Sequence record: PZ386966.1
Strand: one strand, 5' to 3'
Length of the DNA: 64,000 bases
Origin: a phage
Of the stretch, positions 8,727 to 64,000 are shown piece after piece (the first letter of the stretch is position 1; the number at the start of each line of letters is the position of its first letter). The position numbers were made by a program, and so were the translations under genes. The notes beneath the pieces are model-generated. The model had not been told where the DNA came from, made no database searches, and saw only the letters and a list, made by a program, of their open reading frames with translations.

Positions 8727-10079
8727 ATGTGGAATCCAATTGTTAATGTAGATATTACATTGAACACCGCAGGAACTACAAGAGAAGGTTTTGGTTTGCC
8801 ACTATTCTTAGCTTCAACAGATAACTTTGAAGAAAGAGTGCGTGGTTACACTTCCTTAACTGAAGTTGCTGAAGATTTCGATGAGAATACTGCTGCATAT
8901 AAGGCTGCTAAACAACTTTGGAGTCAGACTCCTAAAGTAACTCAGCTTTATATTGGTAGACGCGCTATGCAGTACACTGTATCAATTCCTGATGCCGTTA
9001 CCGAAAGTACAGACTACTCAATTACTGTAGCTGCTGGCGGTGGAATTTCTCAACCATTCCAGTATACAGCACAAAGCTCAGATACTGCTGAGGTAGTTTT
9101 GCAACAGTTTAAAACACAGATTGAAGCTGACCCAACAATCAAAGATAAGGTTTCTGTGAACGTAACTGGTAGCAATGGTTCTGCCACAATGATTATTACC
9201 AAAGCTGGTGATAATGACTTTGTGAAAGTAACAACCACAGCACAGACTGTATATATTGCAAGTACAACTGCCGATACAGCATCAACTGCTCTGGCAGCTA
9301 TCGAAGCTTATTCTACCGACTGGTATTTCATTGCAGCAGAAGACAGAACTCAACAGTTTGTCTTAGCAATGGCTTCTGAGATTCAGGCTCGCAAGAAAAT
9401 CTTCTTTACAGCTAACTCTGATGTAACAGCCCTGCAAGGTACAGAATTAGCCAGTGCAAATGATGTTCCAGCACAGCTTGCTAAGAATATGTACACTCGT
9501 ACAGTTTGCTTGTGGCATCACGCAGCAGCAGAAGATTACCCAGAGATGGCATACATTGCTTATGGTGCTCCGTATGATGCAGGTTCAATTGCTTGGGGGA
9601 ATGCTCAGCTAACTGGTGTGGCAGCTTCTCTACAACCATCTAATCAGAGACCTCTGACAAGTATTCAGAAGTCTGCTTTAGATGCACGTCACTGTAACTT
9701 TATTGACCTTGATGGTGGTGTTCCAGTGGTTCGTAGAGGGATTACTTCTGGTGGGGAATGGATTGATATCGTCCGTGGTGTTGACTGGTTAGAATCAGAC
9801 CTGAAAACTTCTCTGAGAGACTTGCTAATTAACCAGAAGGGTGGTAAGATTACTTATGATGATACTGGTATTACCCGTATTCGTCAAGTCATTGAAACCT
9901 CTCTGCAAAGAGCAGTCAACAGAAACTTCCTGTCATCTTACACAGTTAATGTTCCTAAAGCCTCTCAAGTTGCTTTAGCAGACAAGAAAGCTCGTATCCT
10001 GAAAGACGTTACCTTCGCAGGTATCTTAGCAGGGGCTATCTTGGATGTTGACTTGAAAGGTACAGTGGCTTACGAATAA
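8727..10079 (+). CDS. tail sheath protein
   Basis: 450 aa ORF followed by a ~150 aa ORF, two small ORFs and the tape measure gene: the canonical sheath-tube-chaperone-TMP order of contractile tails. Confidence 0.5.
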   Translation: MWNPIVNVDITLNTAGTTREGFGLPLFLASTDNFEERVRGYTSLTEVAEDFDENTAAYKAAKQLWSQTPKVTQLYIGRRAMQYTVSIPDAVTESTDYSITVAAGGGISQPFQYTAQSSDTAEVVLQQFKTQIEADPTIKDKVSVNVTGSNGSATMIITKAGDNDFVKVTTTAQTVYIASTTADTASTALAAIEAYSTDWYFIAAEDRTQQFVLAMASEIQARKKIFFTANSDVTALQGTELASANDVPAQLAKNMYTRTVCLWHHAAAEDYPEMAYIAYGAPYDAGSIAWGNAQLTGVAASLQPSNQRPLTSIQKSALDARHCNFIDLDGGVPVVRRGITSGGEWIDIVRGVDWLESDLKTSLRDLLINQKGGKITYDDTGITRIRQVIETSLQRAVNRNFLSSYTVNVPKASQVALADKKARILKDVTFAGILAGAILDVDLKGTVAYE

Positions 10080-10094
10080 TAGAGGTAAATTGGA

Positions 10095-10541
10095 ATGGCT
10101 ATGTATCAGCAATATTCCCCTAAAGACGTTGTATGTAGCTGGAATGGTATTGCCATTGAAGGCTTTGCCCCAGACTCATTCTTACGTCTACAGAGAACAT
10201 CACCACTAGTAACACCAGTTGTTGGTGCAGGTGGTCAGGTTGCTCTGACAAGAAATGCAGACAAGACAGGTACTATTGAGATTGAGTTAATGCAGACCTC
10301 TCTCTCTAACCAGATGCTTTCTGCAATTCAAGCTAAACAAGACAATATGGAACTTGAAGAAGATATCTCTTCTAACTTCGTAATCTACGACCCATCAGGC
10401 TCTGTTCTGGCAACTGGTATTAACGCTTGGTTGCAGGAGTTACCACAGATTGAACTTGGTCGTGACCAGAACTCTAAAACTTGGATTTTTGGTTGTGAGA
10501 AGTTAGACTACACTTCTACAATTCCAGCGTCAAGTGTTTAA
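10095..10541 (+). CDS. tail tube protein
   Basis: 148 aa ORF after sheath, followed by a strong terminator as is typical of highly expressed sheath/tube pairs. Confidence 0.5.
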   Translation: MAMYQQYSPKDVVCSWNGIAIEGFAPDSFLRLQRTSPLVTPVVGAGGQVALTRNADKTGTIEIELMQTSLSNQMLSAIQAKQDNMELEEDISSNFVIYDPSGSVLATGINAWLQELPQIELGRDQNSKTWIFGCEKLDYTSTIPASSV

Positions 10542-10553
10542 TAAATCCTATAA

Positions 10554-10588
10554 GGGGGAGACTTTAAAAGGTCTTCCCCTTTTTTGTT
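10554..10588 (+). terminator. rho-independent terminator
   Basis: Hairpin 'ggggagac...gtcttcccc' followed by 'ttttttgtttctttt'. Confidence 0.6.
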
Positions 10589-10614
10589 TCTTTTAAAAGT
10601 ATTAAGGAATCACA

Positions 10615-11013
10615 ATGAAAACAGAATCTAGAGTAATTAATGGTAAGAAAGTAAATATCGTTCTGCTTGGGGCAAGAGATGGTATTAAGATGTCTATGAA
10701 GTTGGGTAAAATTGTTGTTCCAACTTTTGCACAGATGCTGTCAAGTCTGACTGACAAGGGTAAGAAAGAAGCTCCGACGGTTCCATTTAAAGAACTTGTT
10801 GAAGCTTGTTTTGACAGAATTGAAGAAATTAACCTTGAAGAGATGGCTACCTTATTATTTCAAGGGGCAACTGTTGACGACTTCCCACTTAATATTGATA
10901 CGTACTTCCAAGCAAACTACGGTGAGTTTATTGATTACTTAGCATTTGCGCTGGAGGCAAACTTCGGAAGTTTTTTCGAAGCAAGCATTTTCAAAAGCCT
11001 AACTTCTCAGTAA
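10615..11013 (+). CDS. tail assembly chaperone (position-based)
   Basis: Small ORF between tube and tape measure genes. Confidence 0.35.
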   Translation: MKTESRVINGKKVNIVLLGARDGIKMSMKLGKIVVPTFAQMLSSLTDKGKKEAPTVPFKELVEACFDRIEEINLEEMATLLFQGATVDDFPLNIDTYFQANYGEFIDYLAFALEANFGSFFEASIFKSLTSQ

Positions 11014-52074: not shown

Positions 52075-52345
52075 AGAAAAGTGGGAAATTTTACCATTAG
52101 TCAGTGAAGGTGGTAATGGTTGTGAAATGTATATGATACGGGGTCATGTTCCAGAACCAATTGCACTTGAGATGGTAAACAACTTTACAGATGGTTCATA
52201 CAAAGATTTAGGGGAACCAACTGTCAAGCAACAATGGGTTAAACCTGTACCAGACAGCACAGGTAACTGTAGTGTACTTTACCACGTTGTAGACCCTGTA
52301 AAATGCAAATCTGCAATGGCAGTAACAAACGTAACTTTTGATTGA
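52067..52345 (+). CDS. hypothetical protein
   Basis: 92 aa. Confidence 0.3.
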   Translation: MAKEKWEILPLVSEGGNGCEMYMIRGHVPEPIALEMVNNFTDGSYKDLGEPTVKQQWVKPVPDSTGNCSVLYHVVDPVKCKSAMAVTNVTFD

Positions 52346-53238
52346 GAGAGAAAACTATGAAAACTGTTATTGAAGCCGTCGTCACAGCACAAGAGAAATT
52401 CTTCCACACAGAAAAATTTAATATCATTCAATTCCCATCTGGAGAAATTGGTGGAAACTTCTCTGAAGATTTTGTTAAGTTTACTGAACGTAATGCTGGT
52501 AAGATTGACAATGTTATACTCACTGTGCAGGGGTATGACAAAGATACACTGTTTGCATTAGCTTTGGCTAAGGATGCCGTTGACAGTCTTGTTCCCCAGA
52601 AATCAGCGATGAAAACCGTTGTTTTCGGATACTTACCAAATGCTCGATATGACCGTCATATGTTCAAAGGTGATTCAGCAGCACTGAAAGTTTTTGCCAA
52701 CCTCGTTAATGCAATGGGTTTTGATGCAGTATGTGCTCTTGACCCTCACAGTAATGTTGCAGAAAACTTATTTAAGTGCTTTCAGAGCATGAAGCAAAAA
52801 GATGTTGCAGCACACTTTGCAAGTGACCCACGCATTGATTTCTTGGTAGCACCAGATGCAGGTGCAGCTAAGAAGACTGAAGATGCCGCTAAAGAGGTAG
52901 ATAAACCCTATATCACAATGTCTAAGGTTCGCAATCTTAAGACTGGAGAAATCACTGGTATGCGAGTCCTTGACGATGTTGATTTGACCGATAAAACTGT
53001 CATGATTCTTGATGATATCTGTGATGGTGGTCGAACCTTCGTGGAGGCAGCTAAACACCTACGTGAAGCAGGTGCAAAACGTGTGGAACTCTATGTAACT
53101 CATGGTATTTTCTCTAAAGGTGTTGAAAGCTTACTTGACAACGGTATTGACCATATCTACACTACAAACTCTTTAGGTGAAGCTAAAGACCGTGGCTTAA
53201 CACATTATGGCCAAGTTACTGTAGCAACCATTGATTAA
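52342..53238 (+). CDS. ribose-phosphate pyrophosphokinase (Prs)-like protein; candidate Adps of NARP1
   Basis: Phosphoribosyltransferase-type binding loop 'VMILDDICDGGRTF' and Prs-like C-terminal domain; 298 aa; directly upstream of the NAMPT-like gene. Confidence 0.6.
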   Translation: MREKTMKTVIEAVVTAQEKFFHTEKFNIIQFPSGEIGGNFSEDFVKFTERNAGKIDNVILTVQGYDKDTLFALALAKDAVDSLVPQKSAMKTVVFGYLPNARYDRHMFKGDSAALKVFANLVNAMGFDAVCALDPHSNVAENLFKCFQSMKQKDVAAHFASDPRIDFLVAPDAGAAKKTEDAAKEVDKPYITMSKVRNLKTGEITGMRVLDDVDLTDKTVMILDDICDGGRTFVEAAKHLREAGAKRVELYVTHGIFSKGVESLLDNGIDHIYTTNSLGEAKDRGLTHYGQVTVATID

Positions 53239-53246
53239 AACTTATA

Positions 53247-53267
53247 GGGGCTTAAAAGCCCCATTTT
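53247..53267 (+). terminator. weak terminator/attenuator hairpin
   Basis: 'ggggcttaaaagcccc' then 'atttt'. Confidence 0.35.
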
Positions 53268-53282
53268 GAGAGAGATTAAAAG

Positions 53283-55064
53283 ATGACTAAATCACTTTAT
53301 GCAGTACCAGCAGGTCTTAATGCAGATGCTTACAAGGCATCACATATATATCAGTATCCAGATGCTACGCAATATCTTATGTTGAACCTGACACCACGTA
53401 GTGACAAATGGTTTAACAGCCCCTTAGCAATTGATGGTGTGGTGGCTTTTGGTATTCAACGTTTTGTTAAAGATTACTTGATAGACCACTGGAACGCAAC
53501 TTTCTTTGAGCGTGATAAAAAAGAAGCAGTTGACGAAATCTTAGAAGTCATGAATGGTGTTCTGGGTAAAGATGCTATCGGTCGAGAGCATTGGGAAGCA
53601 CTTCACGACTTAGGTTATCTACCAGTTGAAGTATACGCTGTAGAAGAAGGCACAGTTGTCCCTATGCGTGTTCCGATGATTGTTTTCCAGAACACTGTTT
53701 CAGGTTTCCATTGGGTAGCAGGTTATCTGGAAGATGCTTTCTCTGCTGAGATTTGGAAGGCTTGTACCATTGCAACTATTGCATTGCACTACAAACGTAT
53801 CTGTAAGAAGTGGGCTGACCTTACTTGTGACAACGACTTGCATTTACCTTATCAGTGCCATGACTTTGCTATGCGTGGTATGTCCGGCTTTACTGATGAC
53901 GCATTTAACGCTGTAGGCCACTTAACCAGCTTTAAAGGAACTGATAGCTTTCCTGCTGTGTATACGGCTAAACGAATCTATGGACAGTCCTACCCAATCT
54001 CTGATATTGGTAGTTCTGTACCAGCCACTGAGCACTCTGTAATGTGTGCAAACATTGCTTGGGAAGGTGGTAATGAATTGATTGAAGAAGAAAGACGCTT
54101 CAAAGGTGAGTTGCAAACCTTCCGTCGCTTCTTAACAGAGACTTACCCGACTGGTATTGCAAGTATTGTTTCAGATACTTATAACTTCTGGAGAACTGTG
54201 TCAGAAATCTTACCAGCACTTCGTAAAGAAATTATGGAACGTGATGGTAAACTGGTAATTCGTCCTGACTCTGGAGACCCTGTACACATTGTCACAGGTT
54301 ATAAAGCAATCCACTTAGAGTGTGCTAAAAAGGCTTATTATGAGCACCTAAGCAAGCTGGAAGCCAGCGACACAATGTTGAATGCTGTTCTGAACATGAA
54401 GCTTGAAAACATCAACTATGGTATTGCTGGATGGCTACTGTCAGAAGGCTACGAAATGGTTGTTGACAGAGAAGACTTTGAAGCTGCTGATACGGTGATG
54501 TTGAAAGATGCTTATATGGTTGGTTCTGCAAACGTTGTAACACGCCCTGTAGCGGAGATTGATGGAGCTATTAAGACACTGTACAACATCTTTGGGGGAA
54601 CTATTAACTCTAAAGGGTTTAAGGTACTGGATGAGCATATCGGTCTTATCTATGGCGACTCTATCACGCTGGAACGTGCAAACGAAATCCTGAAGCGTCT
54701 GTATGAAATGGGTTTTGCAAGCTCTAACGTAGTGTTTGGTGTAGGCTCTTACACTTACCAGTACATGACTCGTGACACCTTTGCATTTGCTGTCAAAGCA
54801 ACTCTTGCAAGCATTGGTGGTAAAGAGATTATGCTTGCAAAAGACCCTAAAACAGATAGTGGTGTTAAGAAATCTGCTTTTGGTGGTGTAGCACCTATGT
54901 GGGACGGTGATAAGCTGAAAGCTGTAGATGGCTATGGGTTCCAGAGTTTTGCAGATGTACTTGACCACCCAGCTTGTGCCTTACGTTTAGTCTTTAGTGA
55001 CTCTGAGCAGTTCGGTTACACAACTCTTGGTGATATTCGAAATAATATTGACAAGCAGCTTTAA
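53283..55064 (+). CDS. nicotinamide phosphoribosyltransferase (NAMPT/NadV)-like protein; candidate Namat of NARP1
   Basis: N-terminal 'NADAYKASHIYQYPDAT' matches the NAMPT 'DSYKVTHYKQYP' signature; 593 aa. Confidence 0.7.
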   Translation: MTKSLYAVPAGLNADAYKASHIYQYPDATQYLMLNLTPRSDKWFNSPLAIDGVVAFGIQRFVKDYLIDHWNATFFERDKKEAVDEILEVMNGVLGKDAIGREHWEALHDLGYLPVEVYAVEEGTVVPMRVPMIVFQNTVSGFHWVAGYLEDAFSAEIWKACTIATIALHYKRICKKWADLTCDNDLHLPYQCHDFAMRGMSGFTDDAFNAVGHLTSFKGTDSFPAVYTAKRIYGQSYPISDIGSSVPATEHSVMCANIAWEGGNELIEEERRFKGELQTFRRFLTETYPTGIASIVSDTYNFWRTVSEILPALRKEIMERDGKLVIRPDSGDPVHIVTGYKAIHLECAKKAYYEHLSKLEASDTMLNAVLNMKLENINYGIAGWLLSEGYEMVVDREDFEAADTVMLKDAYMVGSANVVTRPVAEIDGAIKTLYNIFGGTINSKGFKVLDEHIGLIYGDSITLERANEILKRLYEMGFASSNVVFGVGSYTYQYMTRDTFAFAVKATLASIGGKEIMLAKDPKTDSGVKKSAFGGVAPMWDGDKLKAVDGYGFQSFADVLDHPACALRLVFSDSEQFGYTTLGDIRNNIDKQL

Positions 55065-55989: not shown

Positions 55990-58356
55990 ATGCGCATGGT
56001 AAACGACCACGCAGAAGTGATTAAGAGTTCAACTTCTTTGGAGACATCTCAAGCACAGATTACAATGACACCTGAAATGTTCAGCCTTTTGAGTTCAGGT
56101 GTATACACATTCAAAGAAAGGGCAGTGATTCGTGAACTGTCATGTAACGCAGTAGATGCTCAAAAAGAAGCTGGAAAAGAGAACATCCCATTCCATGTGC
56201 ATTTACCTACTCGATTTGAGCCTTACTTTGAAGTCCGTGACTTTGGAACTGGTTTAACCCATGACAAAGTAATGAGTTTGTATCTGAACTATGGGGCTTC
56301 TACGAAGAATGACTCCAATGATTACATTGGTGCAATGGGTATCGGCTCAAAATCCCCATTTGCAATTGCTCAGTCATTCACAGTATCTAGCTATGTTGAT
56401 GGTGTTGTTAATAAGTACTCTGTTTACCTTGAGAATGGTATCCCTCAAGTAACTAAGCTTACTACCAACCCAACAAATGAACCCAATGGTTTAGCTGTAC
56501 GTGTAGCAGTTGCTGACCATCGTATTTCAAAGTTCTTTGAAGAGGCTGGTCATGTATACTCATACTTTGCTGTAAAACCAGAAAGTAACATTGTATATGA
56601 TGATGTATTAGCAGATATGAATGTCATTGCCCGTGAAGAGGGTGTTTATGATGCTATGATTCATAAGCAAAGCTGGCGTTCTAGTGGCAACAGGACAGAG
56701 TTTAATGTGGTGATGGGTAATATTTCCTACCCAGTGAACATGGAAGCATTACTTGGTGATGATTTCTTCAAAGTCTTGCCAGAGTTTTTCCGTAGGAGCG
56801 TAGACCTTGTAAACATCTACATGCCTATTGGTTCAGTGGCTATTGCAGCTTCTCGTGAAGCATTGCAGATGAATGACACGACAAAAAATGTTATCATCGA
56901 GGCTACTAAAAAGATAACTGAAGCCATTACAAAGGATGTTATCAAGAAAGTTAACAGTCAACCTACACTCATGGATGCTGCACAGGCTTATGCTGAGTTA
57001 CGTTTAAACTCACGAGAGATGTTTAATGCTGTGTGTCCAAAGCTAGAGTGGGGTGGTGTTAAGCTTGATTCTCTGGAAGAAGAATTACTAAACATTCGTC
57101 GTGGGATTATCTACGCAGAAGACGGCTCAGTCATTTATGAACGTGACGGTAAAGGTAATATTAAGGTTGATAGGAACGGGAATAATATCCCCAAAGTAGA
57201 TTACCTATACAATCCAGTTGCTTATGTCAAGTTCAACTCTTTGGAGAGTAAGATTCGTGCAACATCGCTTTCCTACACTCAAGAGGCGAGTATGTTCAAT
57301 ATCTTTGGCGCAATGCGTAAAAGTCAAATTGAACAGTTTTTGTTTGTTATAAACGACCGTCGCAATAAAAATGGTACTGAGAAGACTGTAGGCCGCAATC
57401 AGATTCTGCGTGGTGCATGTCGAGACTACGCTAACGAGTCAAGCCTGTTCCACAGATACAATGGTATTGTGTTTGTATTCTCGACTGAAAAAGAGTTAGA
57501 TGATTTAATCAACCTACATAAACTTGATAAAAGTTTGTTAAAGATTGTGAAGATGTCTGATAAGGAGCACCATTATCAGCGTAAAGAAGCTGTGAGGGGT
57601 GTTGTAAAACTCTGGAAAGCTGTTCCATCAGAAACTAAAGCTTCATACACAGAGGTGTCAGAAGACCTAGATACAATTGAAGAACCCCAGCTTTATATCA
57701 AGGCAGTAGGCGACACAGTTGATGGTGAATGTTTTTGCTCATCCCCAGAAGATGTAGCTAAAACAATTGCTAATGTTATAGGAAAAACAGTCTATGTTTT
57801 CCGAAAAGCAAATTGGAAAAAGATACCAGAAGACTGGATTGGAGTAGATGAGAAGCTATTGAATGACAGCTTAACTGATGTTCACTGGATTAATCATAAC
57901 AGGTATATGACACGTATCTATATGAATGGTGTCCTTGACCTTACAAGTAGTTGGATTATTGCCAGAAACTTTACGTTTAATAACAAGAAGATTTCTCGCG
58001 GGTATTGCTATTCACGAGATACAAACAAAACCATCTTCTTAGAAGGTAATGAGAATGCTGTTGAGGCAATGTTTGGTAAGATTCAGTATGTGGCTGCACC
58101 GTTTGCATACACTTACACTACCAGTGTTCTTCAGGATTTGAAGTCATGCCTTGACAATGATACAAAACTGTACAAAAAGATTAAGAAAGCGGGTGACCGC
58201 ATGGTTATTAAACTGACAAACTACCTTTCAAAAAGAAAACAAGAAAACTTCTTGCTTTCCCATTTAGATTGGAATAAAGTGTCACCCATCGAAGTGAGTA
58301 AGTTCTTAGGCTTTGATGTGAAGTGTGTTCCAGAAGGAACTACAGTTTACGATTAA
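55990..58356 (+). CDS. rIIA: rIIA protein (GHKL-type ATPase)
   Basis: 'RAVIRELSCNAVDA', 'RDFGTGL', 'NDYIGAMGIGSKSPF' align with recalled T4 rIIA 'RAVVRELITNMIDA', 'RDFGPGM', 'NDFIGGFGLGSKSPF'. Confidence 0.75.
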   Translation: MRMVNDHAEVIKSSTSLETSQAQITMTPEMFSLLSSGVYTFKERAVIRELSCNAVDAQKEAGKENIPFHVHLPTRFEPYFEVRDFGTGLTHDKVMSLYLNYGASTKNDSNDYIGAMGIGSKSPFAIAQSFTVSSYVDGVVNKYSVYLENGIPQVTKLTTNPTNEPNGLAVRVAVADHRISKFFEEAGHVYSYFAVKPESNIVYDDVLADMNVIAREEGVYDAMIHKQSWRSSGNRTEFNVVMGNISYPVNMEALLGDDFFKVLPEFFRRSVDLVNIYMPIGSVAIAASREALQMNDTTKNVIIEATKKITEAITKDVIKKVNSQPTLMDAAQAYAELRLNSREMFNAVCPKLEWGGVKLDSLEEELLNIRRGIIYAEDGSVIYERDGKGNIKVDRNGNNIPKVDYLYNPVAYVKFNSLESKIRATSLSYTQEASMFNIFGAMRKSQIEQFLFVINDRRNKNGTEKTVGRNQILRGACRDYANESSLFHRYNGIVFVFSTEKELDDLINLHKLDKSLLKIVKMSDKEHHYQRKEAVRGVVKLWKAVPSETKASYTEVSEDLDTIEEPQLYIKAVGDTVDGECFCSSPEDVAKTIANVIGKTVYVFRKANWKKIPEDWIGVDEKLLNDSLTDVHWINHNRYMTRIYMNGVLDLTSSWIIARNFTFNNKKISRGYCYSRDTNKTIFLEGNENAVEAMFGKIQYVAAPFAYTYTTSVLQDLKSCLDNDTKLYKKIKKAGDRMVIKLTNYLSKRKQENFLLSHLDWNKVSPIEVSKFLGFDVKCVPEGTTVYD

Positions 58357-58361
58357 AGTGT

Positions 58362-58391
58362 TTGACAAGGGGCTTTGAAGCCCCTTAGAAT
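58362..58391 (+). promoter_or_regulatory. sigma70-like promoter with hairpin in the spacer
   Basis: 'ttgaca' 58362-58367, 18-bp spacer formed by hairpin 'aaggggctttgaagcccctt', 'tagaat' 58386-58391; upstream of rIIB. Confidence 0.4.
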
Positions 58392-58435
58392 AGCCTCACA
58401 AAATGATTTATTAACTAACAAGAGAGAGTAATAAG

Positions 58436-59545
58436 ATGACTACTAAAACTAAAGCACAGATTGACGCAGAAATTTACAAACTGGTTAAAGAGGGTAAGCT
58501 GACTAAAACAGCTATTGCACAGAAATTTAACACCTCAACCCGTTCAGTCGGTCGTGCTGTAGAGCGTCATGAAGCAACCTTAAAAGGTAAGAAAAAGGTA
58601 GCTTCTAAACCAGCTACGAAGACTTTGAAGCAAGTTGCTAAATCAGTTAAAAAGAAAGCTGGAAAACCAGTTGAAAATGTTGTTAAAGAGACTGTACAAA
58701 AGGCTCCGGTAAATAAACTACACGAAGCTATGCAGAATGGTAACCAGATTGAGTATATGATTACTGGCGATTCTGTTATCATGACTTTCGGTGCAGATTC
58801 TGAAATCATTGAATCTACCCATCCGAACTATAAAGAAATCGTAATGGCTGTTGTATCCGGTGAGTATAAGAAAGCTTTCGAACTGATGAACATTCGTAAG
58901 TCTATCGAAAACTTCACTCAGGGTGCTATCACAATCAAAGGTGACAAGCTATTCTACGGTGCTGTTGAGATGCGTTCTACTCTGGTTGACCGTATTCTTC
59001 ACATGATGAAGACTGGAGATAAAGGTTTTGAACGCCTTGTGATGTTCTTCGAAAAACTGATGGAAAACCCATCTAAAGACTCTGTAGAACAACTTTGGGG
59101 CTTCGTATCTCACCTTGATGTTGAAATTGATGAAGAAGGTTACATCATTGGTTGGAAGAAAGTATCTACTCGTGAAGGCAAGCTGGTTGACTCCCACACC
59201 TACAGAGTACCTAATGATTTGGGTAACATTGTAGAAATGCCACGTTGGATGGTTGATAATAACCGTAACGTGACTTGCTCTCAAGGTCTTCATGTTGGTG
59301 CTTGGGATTATGTTCGTTGCTTCTCAGGTGATACAATCCTGAAGGTTCGTGTCCATCCACGAGACGTTGTATCCGTACCAACTGATTACAATGATATGAA
59401 GATGCGCTCGTCTCGTTATGAAGTTGCAGCAATCGTTGATAATCAACGTAAAGTGCTGAAAGCATGGGATGGCAAGACTGAAGCTTTGCATGTCATCGTT
59501 GGCACTGCTGGTGAACTCATCTCTCAACGTAAACGTGAAATCTAA
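58436..59545 (+). CDS. rIIB: rIIB protein
   Basis: C-terminal 'KVRVHPRDVVSVPTDYNDMKMRSSRYEV' aligns with recalled T4 rIIB 'KVKVHPRDVVSIPIDYNDAKMRTCQYEV'; immediately follows rIIA. Confidence 0.75.
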   Translation: MTTKTKAQIDAEIYKLVKEGKLTKTAIAQKFNTSTRSVGRAVERHEATLKGKKKVASKPATKTLKQVAKSVKKKAGKPVENVVKETVQKAPVNKLHEAMQNGNQIEYMITGDSVIMTFGADSEIIESTHPNYKEIVMAVVSGEYKKAFELMNIRKSIENFTQGAITIKGDKLFYGAVEMRSTLVDRILHMMKTGDKGFERLVMFFEKLMENPSKDSVEQLWGFVSHLDVEIDEEGYIIGWKKVSTREGKLVDSHTYRVPNDLGNIVEMPRWMVDNNRNVTCSQGLHVGAWDYVRCFSGDTILKVRVHPRDVVSVPTDYNDMKMRSSRYEVAAIVDNQRKVLKAWDGKTEALHVIVGTAGELISQRKREI

Positions 59546-59645: not shown

Positions 59646-60194
59646 ATGAAGAAATTGATTCTAGGTTTGTGCTTAATGTTTACAGCACACTTATCTTATG
59701 CAGTTGACTGCCCAGAGCTATCAATTAGCCAAAAAGTAAACATGTTAAAAGCTTACCAGTATGGTGAGAATAACATGGGTAAAGGTTGGGGTATCACTCT
59801 AGCTGCTATAGCCTTACAAGAGTCAGAGTTAGGTCTGAAGGTAGAGAATAAAAAGACACATGATTATGGTATTTTCCAGAATCACTTGAAGACTGTTGTA
59901 AAGCGTAACAAAATTAGTCCTAATGTGGCTAAAAAGAAACTCTTAAGAGACTTTGACTATGCTGCAAAGGAAACGCACAAAGAACTTGAATTTTGGACAA
60001 AGGTGCATGGTCAGCCAAAGTCAAAGAAAACTTTACAAAAAGTTTTAGCATCATATAATGCTGGGTATTCGTACAGAATCCCTAAAGCTAAAAAATATTC
60101 TCAAGATGTCTATAACAACATGAAAGTTATCGCTCAATGTGAATTTGCAACAAACATTTCTAAGGTAAATCATGAAAAAATTAAGAAAGTCTGA
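59646..60194 (+). CDS. secreted lytic transglycosylase-like protein (endolysin candidate)
   Basis: Signal peptide 'MKKLILGLCLMFTAHLSYA'; SLT-like 'ALQESELGL...YGIFQNH'. Confidence 0.45.
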   Translation: MKKLILGLCLMFTAHLSYAVDCPELSISQKVNMLKAYQYGENNMGKGWGITLAAIALQESELGLKVENKKTHDYGIFQNHLKTVVKRNKISPNVAKKKLLRDFDYAAKETHKELEFWTKVHGQPKSKKTLQKVLASYNAGYSYRIPKAKKYSQDVYNNMKVIAQCEFATNISKVNHEKIKKV

Positions 60195-60867
60195 TGAAGT
60201 ACTGTGTCATGCTTATGACTTACATCCTCATGAGTTAGGTCTTGATTCCTGTGTATGGACTCCAGAACAGTGTAGGGATTTTGAAGACACTGCAAGAGAA
60301 GTTGTATGTTCACTTGAAGAGTTTCACACATCAGAGCCAATTGTGAATGTTGTAGATAAAGAGACTGGACAAACTATAGGGGTAAGTCGTGATAGTTTAG
60401 TCATAGTCAATAAAGACCTTGTAGAAAAAGGTAACCTCATCTTAGCAGATATTGATGGTGTTCTTACAAATTTTAATCACGAAGATTGCTCAACGGAATT
60501 GACTGATGGGTCATTCTCACAGTACACTAATCTTCTTGACTCTGTAAGAGCAAAACCAACGTATGTTTTTAGTATTATTGATGCAATTGCTAATCATGCT
60601 GCCATTGGACTCTTGACAGCGAGAGGTGAATCTCAGAGAATACCTACTGAGATGTTTTTAAGGCATAACATAGAGCATGACTACATGCTTTTTATGCGTG
60701 GTTTTGGAACTAACTCTATAAGTGCAGAAAGTTTGAAAGTGAGGATGATTCAATCTTGCATTCTGCCTTACTTTAATATAGTATGTTTTATAGAAGATAC
60801 AGAGAAGAATGTGCAGAAGGTGAACAGAATCCTTCCACACATTAAAACCATGTTAGTTAAACATTGA
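60172..60867 (+). CDS. HAD-superfamily phosphatase domain protein
   Basis: HAD motif I 'LADIDGVLT', motif II 'GLLTARG', motif IV-like 'FIEDTEKN'; N-terminal ~95 aa unassigned. Confidence 0.45.
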   Translation: MKKLRKSDEVLCHAYDLHPHELGLDSCVWTPEQCRDFEDTAREVVCSLEEFHTSEPIVNVVDKETGQTIGVSRDSLVIVNKDLVEKGNLILADIDGVLTNFNHEDCSTELTDGSFSQYTNLLDSVRAKPTYVFSIIDAIANHAAIGLLTARGESQRIPTEMFLRHNIEHDYMLFMRGFGTNSISAESLKVRMIQSCILPYFNIVCFIEDTEKNVQKVNRILPHIKTMLVKH

Positions 60868-62500: not shown

Positions 62501-62702
62501 AAAGACACGGAAAATTATCCGGTCAGCAGTATTCATTGGAAGAAATGAAGTGATTCCTTTTACAGCAAATGATGTGATAGTCTACAGGAAAAAATTAGCA
62601 TTCAGTTATTGCTTACGTGGCTTCATCTCCCAACCGTTGGAAGACTTTAAAAGCCGTTGTGGTAAAGGTATCATCATTCAAGAGGCAATTATTCATGGCT
62701 GA
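62475..62702 (+). CDS. hypothetical protein
   Basis: 75 aa. Confidence 0.25.
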   Translation: MKVILARDKKTRKIIRSAVFIGRNEVIPFTANDVIVYRKKLAFSYCLRGFISQPLEDFKSRCGKGIIIQEAIIHG

Positions 62703-62895
62703 TTTCTGCAAGAAGTGTGCAATAGAACATTTTGGTGTTGATACAGGGGACTTGAAAGGTCTCTTCACCAAAGAAGAGTTTGAAGCTGGTTCAGCTATGC
62801 CAGTTATCTGTGAAGGTTGTGGTGCAGGTTATGTAGACCATGAAGGTAACCGTGTAAAACCATCCGAAGATATGCAACGTTGGGAGCATTATTAG
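62617..62895 (+). CDS. small zinc-binding protein
   Basis: 'CKKCAIEH...CEGCGAGY'; overlaps previous ORF, so one of the two may be spurious. Confidence 0.3.
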   Translation: MASSPNRWKTLKAVVVKVSSFKRQLFMADFCKKCAIEHFGVDTGDLKGLFTKEEFEAGSAMPVICEGCGAGYVDHEGNRVKPSEDMQRWEHY

Positions 62896-62896
62896 T

Positions 62897-63682
62897 ATGG
62901 GTATTGTAAAAATCATCAATGGTGATATCTTTGCAGCATTTGATAAAGGTAAGTTTGACGTCATCGGTCACGGTTGCAACTGTATGAACCTAATGGGTGC
63001 AGGTATCGCTGATAAGATTTCTAAACTTTACCCAAAAGCATATGAGACCGATACAGAAGTTTATCTATATGCAGGCGGTATAGGTCACAAACCCTGTGAA
63101 AATTTACTGGGTAATTTCTCCGTAGCACGTTTAAAACAAGGCCGTATAGCTAACCTTTACACTCAGCTTAAGACTGGTAAAGATGCTCGATATAGTGCTT
63201 TAGAGTCATCTTTGAAACAGCTTAACAGATACTGTGAAGTCAATCAGTTGAAGAAAGTCGGGTTACCTATGATTGGTGCAGGTATCGGTGGGCTAGACCC
63301 CCAAGCCGTCACAGTTATCATCAATCAGGTGATGAAGAGTGTAGATGTGTATCTGTATGTCTATGAAGGAGAGATGTACCACAAGTTACACTCAGGTTGG
63401 GAGAACTACTGTGAACCAGAATACTTTGCAGGTGTAGCAGTGTTCACGGATAATGCAGTTACCCTCTTCAGACGAAGAAAAGGTAAGATACATCAAAGTA
63501 ACCCTCCGGTTGAAAAGATGTCTCTAAGTAACGCTCTAGTTACCCACCTGTCGAAGAGCAATCACAGAATTGCAGTAACATTTGGCAGTGATGCAGATAC
63601 TTACATCTATGCAAGAACTGATGAGGATATCGAGACAGTTTTCTCTTCGCCGGAAGTTACCTTCTTAGACGCAAAGAACTAA
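62897..63682 (+). CDS. macro-domain (ADP-ribose-binding/processing) protein
   Basis: 'INGDIF...DVIGHGCNCMNLMGAGIADKI' and 'ALESSLKQ...VGLPMIGAGIGGLDPQAV' follow the macro-domain pattern (GDI..DAIVNAAN..GGGV ... SIAFP.IGTG..G.P); ~100 aa C-terminal extension. Confidence 0.5.
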   Translation: MGIVKIINGDIFAAFDKGKFDVIGHGCNCMNLMGAGIADKISKLYPKAYETDTEVYLYAGGIGHKPCENLLGNFSVARLKQGRIANLYTQLKTGKDARYSALESSLKQLNRYCEVNQLKKVGLPMIGAGIGGLDPQAVTVIINQVMKSVDVYLYVYEGEMYHKLHSGWENYCEPEYFAGVAVFTDNAVTLFRRRKGKIHQSNPPVEKMSLSNALVTHLSKSNHRIAVTFGSDADTYIYARTDEDIETVFSSPEVTFLDAKN

Positions 63683-63763
63683 GAAACTCTGTAGAATATT
63701 CACAAGAGACTAAGCCTTTCTTATCTGGTAAATTTTTCAGGTAAGGAGGGCTTTTTTATTTCA

Positions 63764-64000
63764 GGATTGTGCAGGTAGAGTTCTGTAGAGAAATCTGTAG
63801 AGAAAATTTTGAACTCCAAAGAGAAAATTCATTTTCAAACTGTGCAGGTAATCTCCAAAGAGCTTTTTCATTTTCAAAACGTGCAGACCCCACTCAGGTC
63901 GGGCAAGAAAAATCATTTGAGAATTGTGCAGGTAGGTTTTTATAGACAGCCAGACCAACCCCTCTCCCCCTCTTACTCCCCCTCTCCCAAAGAGTCAAGA
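63764..64000. repeat. iteron-like direct repeat array plus polypyrimidine tract, running off the window edge
   Basis: 'tgtgcaggta' at 63768, 63841, 63925 (variant 'cgtgcag' at 63880); ~37-bp units 'ctccaaagag...cattttcaaa..tgtgcaggta' at 63814 and 63853; 'tctgtagag' twice; 'tccccctct' twice (63965, 63977). Confidence 0.7.

Follow-up and report, generated by a model that had tools for sequence, protein, structure and literature searches.

The 64-kb stretch of DNA that we analysed (the window) comes from a Felixounavirus, a phage of the Felix-O1 type. At positions 62897–63682 of its plus strand we found a 261-codon open reading frame, with an ATG start and a TAA stop in both the open reading frame list and the sequence. 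The gene and its surroundings are laid out as follows.

52342–53238, + strand: Adps, the Prs-like ADP-ribose (ADPR) pyrophosphokinase of NARP1 (Pfam PF00156 and PF14572)
53283–55064, + strand: Namat, the NAMPT-like nicotinamide ADPR transferase of NARP1 (Pfam PF04095 and PF18127)
62695–62895, + strand: gene of a 66-residue CxxC...CxxC mini-protein, upstream neighbour of the macro gene, its stop codon 1 nt ahead of the macro ATG; listed as context
62897–63682, + strand: complete gene of a two-domain macro protein of 261 residues (open reading frame list; phrog_335 match over the whole protein, E 3e-113; position of the ortholog in Bas63; dN/dS well below 1)
63712–63753, + strand: terminator-like hairpin of 17 pairs followed by a T-run, closing the transcription unit that ends with the macro gene (from the sequence; relatives KT184313-16 carry a terminator annotation at this position)

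The macro gene is the final gene before this strong hairpin, and no DarT toxin gene adjoins it, the CxxC gene lying upstream and the terminator downstream. A Pfam scan of 10 upstream proteins, reaching as far as the NARP1 pair, gave no ADP-ribosyltransferase (ART-like) match. In Felixounavirus and in loci of the Michonne-like type the CxxC gene is conserved ahead of the macro gene, but not in more distant two-domain carriers; since its conservation is limited to these genera, we rejected it as an obligate partner.

A sequence-only reading of this DNA had put the gene at the end of a metabolic module, near NAD-related genes that included a "Prs/NAMPT pair". That pair is not PRPP synthetase and NAMPT. 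It is Adps and Namat of the characterised NARP1 NAD+-reconstitution operon (52342–55064), with 95.2% nucleotide identity to genes 79/80 of Bas63, the phage in which NARP1 was discovered. The placement near NAD-related genes is loosely right, but there is no contiguous module: these genes stop at 55064, and the macro gene follows 7.8 kb and 14 genes downstream (counted on the Bas63 annotation), beyond rIIA, rIIB, a PNK-like gene and the spanins. NARP1 lies ~8–10 kb upstream in every two-domain carrier that we checked. The Bas63 ortholog of the macro gene, bas63_0095, is annotated as "putative phosphatase", and some GenBank records name the ortholog "O-acetyl-ADP-ribose deacetylase" (our homolog H23). 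The macro/phosphatase annotation is already in GenBank.

A macro domain with glutamine in the lysine column

The Felix-type protein is a macro protein, predicted from sequence and model to handle ADP-ribose, fused to a small orphan domain. Its parts are the following.

62897–63367, + strand: N-terminal macro domain, residues 1–157 (Pfam PF01661; AlphaFold2 model similar to TARG1 and DarG; PADLOC and NCBIfam DarG matches, macro part only)
62966–63010, + strand: Gly-rich loop 1, residues 24–38, GHGCNCMNLMGAGIA, with the H25-G-C-N28-C motif (invariant columns in alignments A1 and A4; aligned to DarG, PhiKZ and TARG1)
63152–63166, + strand: N86-L-Y-T-Q90 motif, then a short loop of 8 residues (alignments with TARG1, DarG and PhiKZ AdfM)
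63266–63301, + strand: Gly-rich loop 2, residues 124–135, PMIGAGIGGLDP (alignments)
63368–63679, + strand: C-terminal orphan domain, residues 158–261 (models: six beta strands and a helix, preceded by a short helix or linker)

Residues 1–157 are a bona fide macro domain, an assignment far beyond chance. The Pfam Macro profile scored 32.3 bits (gathering cut-off 22), with residues 25–141 covering profile positions 2–117 of 118, and a profile of 19 homologs matched TARG1 (E 4e-11) and DarG (E 8e-9) in the PDB. The AlphaFold2 model (pLDDT 86.5, pTM 0.85) gave the same picture when compared with the PDB by Foldseek: TARG1 was matched with TM 0.81 and E 6e-10, DarG macrodomains were also matched with E about 1e-8, and target-normalised TM values to TARG1 and DarG were 0.77–0.82. 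Foldseek returned 216 PDB matches at E <= 0.001, and the 50 listed were macrodomains or designed enzymes. The profile search and structure prediction that the sequence-only reading had called for thus bear out its macro domain, and both of the Gly-rich loops that it quoted are present, the second as IGAGIGGLDP at residues 126–135.

In PADLOC (E 2.8e-13) and in NCBIfam (E 1.4e-12) alike, DarG was the one family with a significant match, in both cases over the macro part only; the NCBIfam DarG model NF048014 reached 47.5 bits against an equivalog cut-off of 250 and was covered at positions 12–153 of 338 only. The Felix-type protein shares with DarG (PDB 5M31, 5M3E, 5M3I) the macro fold, the short loop and, in outline, the two-module layout of a macro domain followed by a C-terminal domain. 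DarG, however, has NTVNC and FPTK motifs where the Felix type has HGCNC and LYTQ, and its clade is a separate one, with 100% bootstrap support.

Both Gly-rich loops are invariant in the homolog alignment, as are the polar residues H25, N28, D52, N86, Y88 and Q90 across the family, and the family signature H-G/Q-[CA]-N-C, D52, N-x-Y-[TSG]-Q is present and invariant in the Felix-type protein. Residue N28 aligns with N22 of DarG and N23 of PhiKZ gp104, which is AdfM (PMC13309987). Q90 stands in the column where TARG1 (K84), DarG (K80 in the T. aquaticus protein) and PhiKZ AdfM (K78) have their catalytic lysine, and G131 in that of TARG1 D125. We therefore rejected a DarG/TARG1-type lysine mechanism, because the catalytic lysine is swapped for a glutamine that is invariant in the family; with D125 missing as well, DarG-like chemistry should not be assumed from these alignments. 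The gene is real and under purifying selection, with a dN/dS of 0.05 for the N-domain among 17 alleles.

Among solved structures, human TARG1/OARD1 (PDB 4J5R, 4J5S) was the top match in both sequence and structure and has the same loop length, although identity is about 24%. Yeast Poa1p (PDB 6LFQ), from which the "phosphatase" and "Poa1p-like" labels were inherited, resembles the Felix type in loop 1 (HSCNC versus HGCNC). It differs in that T-S replaces T-Q, the loop is 5 residues longer and a large insertion precedes loop 2, and its sequence match is confined to the N-terminal residues 1–60.

Relatives in phages

The macro domain belongs to phrog_335, a large phage family with ~2,800 phage records. 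The two members that have been studied each disarm a bacterial anti-phage defence. Knockout of T4 Tk.4/AdfM sensitises T4 to DarTG2, a DNA ADP-ribosylating toxin, as described in a preprint in which the evidence is genetic and the mechanism inferred (bioRxiv 10.1101/2025.11.20.689424). Adpp of Vibrio phage Gary (KNV71_gp137), encoded in a NARP1 operon, is an ADPR-1''-phosphate phosphatase that counters aRES: the purified enzyme turns ADPR-1P into ADPR, it is needed for NARP1-AP to beat aRES, and mutation abolishes function (bioRxiv 10.64898/2026.01.28.702374). The two functions that the sequence-only reading had proposed, countering ADP-ribosylating toxins or processing ADPR derivatives of NADase defences, are thus the activities of these relatives.

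Tk.4 (NP_049723) is the closest characterised relative of the Felix-type protein (35% identity, 82 bits, E 3e-24). It has an identical HGCNC, D52 and NLYTQ, the same 8-residue loop, and is likewise an orphan gene with no toxin partner. However, Tk.4 is a single domain of 155 residues with GKGNW/GGGDW in loop 2, whereas the Felix type has GGLDP and an added C-terminal domain of ~100 residues, and the two fall in separate clades; at 261 residues the Felix type lies outside the single-domain ~150–160-residue format of the Tk.4 type. Gary Adpp has the same H/N/D/Q catalytic positions, and its phage also encodes Adps and Namat. It differs in that its gene sits between these two, and in having HQCNC/NVYGQ motifs, a 7-residue longer loop and a single domain of 158 residues, with just 27% identity (53 bits) to the Felix N-domain.

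Felix-type proteins form a separate two-domain clade with a bootstrap of 71–76%, and loop 2 reads GGLD[P/S/A/I] in this clade versus GGGDW in single-domain relatives. Attempts to place the clade with Tk.4 or with Adpp by phylogeny failed, backbone bootstraps being 20 or less; with these values and only 35% identity to Tk.4, the Felix clade is therefore not demonstrably nearer Tk.4 than Adpp. The loop after Q90 separates the relatives differently. It has 8 residues in the Felix type, Tk.4, DarG (two species), PhiKZ AdfM and TARG1, and 12–15 residues, or an insertion of 4–7, in Poa1p, Gary Adpp, 10/10 Adpp representatives of Table S1 of the NARP1-AP paper and the NARP1-adjacent homolog of locus L068, a rule that is built on 2 versus 5 characterised enzymes.

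Candidate substrates

We tentatively favour the reading that the gene product is an ADP-ribose hydrolase for counter-defence, a member of the Tk.4/Adpp phage macro family that acts as an AdfM-like nucleic-acid de-ADP-ribosylase. The two Gly-rich loops are predicted to bind the ADP-ribose moiety, and a lysine-independent site composed of H25, N28, D52, N86, Y88 and Q90 would hydrolyse the group on C1'' of the distal ribose. The most likely substrate would be ADP-ribose on a nucleic-acid base, because the loop is short and open, as in DarG, TARG1, PhiKZ AdfM and Tk.4, and because Tk.4 is the closest characterised relative. ADP-ribose on thymine and uracil bases is taken off by the TARG1-like class of macrodomains (PMC13036486). 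The prime candidate target would be thymine that DarT2-type toxins have modified in single-stranded phage DNA; removal of the mark would restore replication, making the protein an "orphan antitoxin" of the AdfM type. In the literature on PhageMaP, HIDEN-SEQ, NARP and DarTG we found no published phenotype of Bas63 gene 95 and no published data on Felix-like phages versus DarTG2.

A counterpoint to AdfM-like activity is that enzymology on purified protein covers a single family member, Gary Adpp, which shares the H/N/D/Q signature and acts as an ADPR-1''P phosphatase. This brings in the nearest rival, which we regard as possible though less likely: that the protein is an Adpp-like helper, which would dephosphorylate the ADP-ribose-1''-phosphate made by RES-domain NAD+ phosphorylases like aRES, after which the phage's Adps and Namat would rebuild ADPR to NAD+. 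The locus would then be a "split" NARP1-AP with its phosphatase 7.8 kb off. ADPR-1''P phosphatase activity is said to be common among active macrodomains, a statement made of viral ones, and a macro gene is present in 15% of NARP1 operons (bioRxiv 10.64898/2026.01.28.702374). The window itself carries NARP1. NARP1 alone does not overcome aRES, which has been cloned from E. coli, Klebsiella and Enterobacter, and a NARP1 phage of enterobacteria would therefore benefit from such a phosphatase. Members of the family adjoin NARP1 repeatedly in unrelated phages (Javier/Gary, L067/L068, L063), and the two-domain macro gene and Namat are syntenic across deep divergence (loci L087 and L088).

Against the Adpp-like helper, the gene lies outside the NARP1 operon, 14 genes away from it, where the authors of the NARP1-AP paper counted genes within two genes of Adps/Namat; their Table S1 holds no Escherichia or Salmonella phages (bioRxiv 10.64898/2026.01.28.702374). 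The Adpp motifs in that table are HQANC (73), HQCNC (33) and YGQ (105), with GGLD in none. The Felix-type protein has neither the long post-Q loop nor the HQxNC/YGQ motifs, and on this sequence evidence its functional tie to the NAD genes is therefore no more than plausible. Its N-domain scores are also weaker with Adpp (53–76 bits) than with Tk.4 (82 bits), the synteny with NARP1 may be mere vertical inheritance in one phage lineage, and the extra C-terminal domain is left unexplained. In the wider family, obligatory genomic coupling to NARP1 was rejected, Adps/Namat lying within 10 kb at 4/57 non-Felix viral loci. T-even phages keep the family with no NARP1 genes seen near the macro gene, which argues for a NARP1-independent role of the family.

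Unlikely, by comparison, is a hydrolase for some other ADP-ribosylated target: protein (on Glu/Asp, or bearing marks of host or phage ADP-ribosyltransferases), RNA (for example uracil- or phosphate-linked ADPr) or O-acetyl-ADP-ribose, serving counter-defence or the tuning of infection. TARG1, the top structural match, does act on protein, DNA and RNA, but RNA adenine ADP-ribosylation of the CmdT type is described as irreversible (PMC13036486). Given its very wide spread, the family may have more than two targets, and the deacetylase label of some GenBank records would fit; however, such names are transferred by homology, this reading has no experimental precedent within the phage family, and the neighbours scanned include no ADP-ribosyltransferase gene. 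Many macrodomains are readers only, and the Felix type lacks the DarG/TARG1 lysine and the TARG1 aspartate, but a non-catalytic sponge or sensor, sequestering an ADPR-derived immune signal or tethering the C-domain to ADP-ribosylated targets, is improbable, as Gary Adpp is catalytically active with the same signature and loses function on mutation, and as the invariant polar residues and the low N-domain dN/dS both fit an enzyme active site.

The choice between AdfM-like and Adpp-like activity matters beyond this gene. NARP1 came to light in Felix-O1-like phages, a group in wide use for phage therapy and phage typing of E. coli and Salmonella. The macro family was tied to specific defences (DarTG2 DNA modification and aRES NAD+ phosphorolysis) only in 2025–2026, through just two of its phage records. 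The Felix clade stands between both branches, combining a Tk.4-like active-site architecture with a NARP1 genome and an extra conserved domain. Identification of its substrate would test whether loop length, short or long, predicts macromolecular or small-molecule substrates in the family. It would also show how macro hydrolysis dispenses with the lysine of DarG/TARG1, assign a function to the orphan domain, and help to predict which defences limit Felix-like therapeutic phages.

The C-terminal domain

The sequence-only reading saw no recognisable motif in the C-terminal extension, and indeed the C-domain has no relatives in Pfam, NCBIfam, PADLOC, the PDB or BFVD. An exhaustive profile search of 1.84 billion representatives gave 12 matches and, as relatives, family members only. 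The C-domain is nevertheless conserved in homologs of 246–264 residues, at identities as low as 32%. We rejected it as a standalone or widely shared module, because the apparently standalone copies (P0032 and P0038) are truncated gene calls; giant multi-stretch matches trace to PQQ/BamB beta-propellers, in which a repeated blade motif drives the score up. A DarG-like DarT-binding domain is unsupported, as the C-domain alone matches no DarG model and has no sequence or fold similarity to that domain. Nor do the data support a DNA mimic that is always acidic or a DNA binder that is always basic, with the pI ranging from 4.75 to 9.13 among homologs.

The lineage-specific C-domain evolves faster than the macro domain and probably serves target recognition, of either the substrate or a host protein. 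Further-reaching proposals can be made, to which we give little weight. The C-domain might be a host-protein recognition module and the Felix-type protein an independently evolved phage analogue of a two-module antitoxin like DarG, one module erasing the ADP-ribose product and the other, fast-evolving, binding and blocking DarT2, aRES or another NAD+-consuming effector; or else one lysine-independent site might serve both branches, de-ADP-ribosylating DNA and feeding ADPR from ADPR-1''P into the phage's NARP1. Among the 17 alleles, dN/dS of the C-domain is 0.19–0.21, ~4x the N-domain value. At one locus (L026) the same slot is taken by a macro allele of only 41% identity, in a backbone with 98% identity in its Namat gene. 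As far as these sequence comparisons go, the faster C-domain evolution and this divergent allele are hallmarks of an arms race.

The macro gene and its fold

The window belongs to Felixounavirus (nucleotide identity of 93-95% to LF82P3, heid and KhF2, among others), and the macro gene is the last gene of its early-region transcription unit. The borders proposed by the sequence-only reading were exact, in the ORF list as in the sequence:

62695-62895: 66-aa CxxC...CxxC mini-gene, its stop 1 nt ahead of the macro start
62897..63682, + strand: macro gene, ATG start, 261 aa, TAA stop
63712-63753: terminator-like hairpin of 17 pairs with a T-run, beginning 30 bp after the macro-gene stop
63768, 63841 and 63925 (stretch 63768-63934), + strand: three exact copies of TGTGCAGGTA, intergenic, just past the terminator

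The N-terminal domain of the product (the Felix protein; macro domain, residues 1-157; C-domain, residues 158-261) is a real macro domain with intact ADP-ribose-binding loops. Both Gly-rich motifs read from the sequence are present (residues 24-38 and 126-135), Pfam Macro matches residues 25-141 with 32.3 bits (cut-off, 22 bits), and a profile of 19 homologues, run against solved structures, found TARG1 (E 4e-11) and the DarG proteins of M. tuberculosis (E 8e-9) and T. aquaticus (E 3e-7). The predicted fold bears this out: the AlphaFold2 model has high confidence (pLDDT 86.5, pTM 0.85) and superposes on TARG1 with a target-normalised TM of 0.81, as well as on DarG macrodomains, Poa1p and viral macrodomains. 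DarG was the sole significant match in PADLOC (E 2.8e-13) and NCBIfam (E 1.4e-12), with just the macro half of these models covered and the DarG equivalog level missed (47.5 versus a cut-off of 250 bits).

The basic assignment is not new, because GenBank already names the gene in relatives ('macro domain protein', 'putative phosphatase', 'O-acetyl-ADP-ribose deacetylase' or 'hypothetical protein'), and the phage macro family (phrog_335) now has characterised members. Undescribed so far is the two-domain Felix-type clade, which combines an orphan C-domain under purifying selection, a GGLD loop variant, a short loop of the Tk.4 type and a genome carrying NARP1, an NAD+-reconstitution pair. Among further matches to the macro region are two records labelled 'Campylobacter phage', which appear to be chimeric or mislabelled entries. 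The CxxC mini-protein, probably a zinc ribbon with two CxxC pairs, had no match in a Pfam search; its gene is kept ahead of the macro gene in Felixounavirus and Michonne-like phages and is missing at that position in more distant two-domain carriers.

Active site, loop length and characterised relatives

Alignments and neighbour-joining (distance-based) trees placed DarG and PhiKZ gp104 in one clade (100% support; motifs NTVN and FPTK). All other phage members, including T4 Tk.4, Vibrio phage Gary Adpp and the Felix protein, carry H-[GQ]-[CA]-N-C, an invariant Asp (D52) and N-x-Y-[TSG]-Q. Compared with DarG and TARG1, the catalytic lysine is replaced by Gln (Q90) and D125 of TARG1 by Gly, and the equivalent of DarG N22 is retained as N28. 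The two-domain proteins group in a clade apart (71-76% bootstrap), marked by GGLD[P/S/A/I] at the place where single-domain members have GGGDW; the trees attach this clade to neither Tk.4 nor Adpp, with backbone bootstraps of at most 20.

Of the two characterised relatives, each points to a defence of its own. Tk.4 (155 aa, annotated 'phosphatase; A1pp motif'; 35% identical to the Felix macro domain, E 3e-24) is the single T4 gene needed on hosts expressing the DNA ADP-ribosylating system DarTG2, and was named AdfM in a 2025 preprint, whose authors inferred, but did not demonstrate, that it removes ADP-ribose from DNA (bioRxiv 10.1101/2025.11.20.689424). A 2026 preprint reports that aRES RES-domain defence proteins convert NAD+ to ADPR-1''-phosphate, unusable by NARP1, that the Poa1p-like macro protein Adpp occurs in 15% of NARP1 operons, and that purified Gary Adpp converts ADPR-1P to ADPR (bioRxiv 10.64898/2026.01.28.702374). 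PhiKZ gp104, another macrodomain called AdfM, is a genuine DarG2-like enzyme whose catalytic residues are N23/K78, as described in a published study (PMC13309987).

The loop directly past the Q/K position is 8 residues long in the Felix and Tk.4 clades, both DarGs, PhiKZ AdfM and TARG1. It is longer, with 12-15 residues, in Gary Adpp, in 10 out of 10 Adpp representatives from Table S1 of the Adpp preprint and in L068, a family locus adjacent to NARP1; Poa1p differs by a 5-residue insertion there (sequence verified against 6LFQ). Outside operon-embedded members, just 14 of 53 family sequences have the long loop. Loop length is a testable predictor, one resting on few characterised enzymes. Motif counts in Table S1 were HQANC 73, HQCNC 33, HGCNC 13, YGQ 105 and GGLD 0, and the table holds no Escherichia or Salmonella phage. 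In pairwise comparison, the Felix N-domain scored 82 bits against Tk.4 and 53-76 bits against Adpp sequences from NARP1 operons.

Substrate and the NARP1 pair

The lysine-free polar active site is invariant and common to the Felix protein and one proven hydrolase (Adpp), and the gene is under strong purifying selection. We infer that the Felix enzyme acts at C1'' of ADP-ribose, cleaving off the group carried there. The two candidate reactions both break a bond at this carbon: one releases phosphate from ADPR-1''P, the other thymine from T-ADPr DNA. We tentatively favour reversal of nucleic-acid base ADP-ribosylation, as for AdfM/Tk.4, because Tk.4 is the closest characterised relative and the short open loop groups the Felix protein with enzymes whose ADP-ribose substrate is attached to a macromolecule; ADP-ribose on thymine and uracil is the substrate of the TARG1-like fold class (PMC13036486).

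The main rival, an Adpp-like phosphatase that would work for the phage's own NARP1, is in our estimate somewhat less likely. It would draw on Adps and Namat, which lie among the following upstream genes:

52342-53238: Adps, Prs-like Pfam domains
53283-55064: Namat, NAMPT-like Pfam domains
55990-59545: large rIIA-like and rIIB-like genes, so annotated in Bas63
60172-60867: 231-aa gene annotated as polynucleotide kinase; homologues show weak or faint HAD_PNKP matches

The 'Prs/NAMPT pair' of the sequence-only reading has such Pfam domains but is in fact the NARP1 pair, matching genes 79-80 of the Felixounavirus JohannRWettstein (Bas63) end to end at 95.2% identity. The pathway was discovered with these Bas63 genes: Adps pyrophosphorylates ADPR, and Namat joins ADPR-PP and nicotinamide into NAD+ (bioRxiv 10.1101/2024.02.11.579819). 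PhageMaP independently confirmed both as counters of Sir2-HerA. FelixO1, LinBro, ekra and BPS15Q2 match the pair in two pieces, with an HNH endonuclease gene annotated there, and a Felix-like Adps-Namat region (94.6% identity) occurs in GU169904.1, a 147-kb 'Staphylococcus phage SA1' record that is apparently chimeric or mislabelled.

The macro gene, the orthologue of bas63_0095, does not lie close to these genes, as had been supposed, but 14 genes and 7.8 kb downstream of Namat. By the Bas63 annotation, rIIA, rIIB (reported by PhageMaP as co-essential against qatABCD), an SLT-like gene, a PNK-like gene and spanins lie between; the rIIA/rIIB/kinase order is kept in the distant contigs L087 and L088. 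We found no phenotype for Bas63 gene 95 in the PhageMaP, HIDEN-SEQ, NARP and DarTG papers.

Across phages, the link to NARP1 is recurrent, not obligatory. Adps/Namat lie within 10 kb of a family member in 4 of 57 non-Felix viral loci (L029, L063, L067/L068), with direct adjacency in at least two unrelated lineages; in Vibrio phage Javier we found, independently of the Adpp preprint, a Prs-macro-NAMPT arrangement whose macro protein shares 94% identity with Gary Adpp. T-even phages have a family member and no Adps/Namat near it. In all two-domain carriers checked, including the distant contigs of homologues P0013 and P0019, Namat lies 8-10 kb upstream in the same synteny, which fits functional coupling and, equally, vertical inheritance within one phage lineage. 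The Tk.4-like and Adpp-like readings are not mutually exclusive and can both hold. A hydrolase for other substrates seems improbable, and a non-catalytic binder very improbable.

The C-terminal domain and downstream repeats

Full-length homologues (246-264 aa) reach down to 32% identity. The C-domain is modelled as a compact fold of six strands and a helix, both in the full-length protein and separately (pLDDT 78.8). That it carries no recognisable motif, as first read, held throughout: it had no relative in Pfam, NCBIfam or PADLOC, BFVD returned only its own family, and an HMM search run exhaustively over 1.84 billion representatives gave nothing beyond family members, a pair of truncated gene calls and PQQ-propeller noise. 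The propellers (PQQ/BamB-type, among P0033-P0040) match with E-values down to 2e-9, inflated by repeats of a blade-like hairpin motif, 'P-x-x-F-D-G-V-hydrophobic...D-N-x-V'; we rejected homology and judged the match convergence or noise.

Across 17 Felix-like alleles, dN/dS was 0.05 in the macro domain and 0.21 in the C-domain, indicating that the latter is functional yet evolving roughly fourfold faster. In more distant homologues, C-domain identity is 48-52%, against 75% for the macro domain and 74-76% for Namat. The pI of the C-domain ranges from 4.75 to 9.13 among homologues, which speaks against a simple role as a DNA mimic or DNA binder. In the Felixounavirus contig L026 (IMGVR_UViG_2974574300_000001), Namat is 98% identical to that of the window, and the corresponding slot, again preceded by the CxxC mini-gene, holds a divergent macro allele (10001-10780; 41% identical overall, 52% in the N-domain). 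The adjoining 75-aa gene is likewise divergent, pointing to a local hot spot of allelic replacement. The fast-evolving extra domain and this replacement suggest that a variable macromolecular partner is being recognised, which would be the C-domain's part in Tk.4-like reversal.

The TGTGCAGGTA copies past the terminator, spaced by 73 and 84 nt, are the only exact ones in the 64-kb window; counting one mismatch, 12 sites were observed where 5.0 ± 2.2 would be expected. Lying before the next small-gene cluster, they may serve as a phage promoter or as a regulatory repeat. Within the macro gene, one 10-mer, GGTGCAGGTA, at 62996-63005 and 63275-63284, encodes part of both Gly-rich loops (MGAGIA and IGAGIG); it is one base off TGTGCAGGTA, probably by coincidence.
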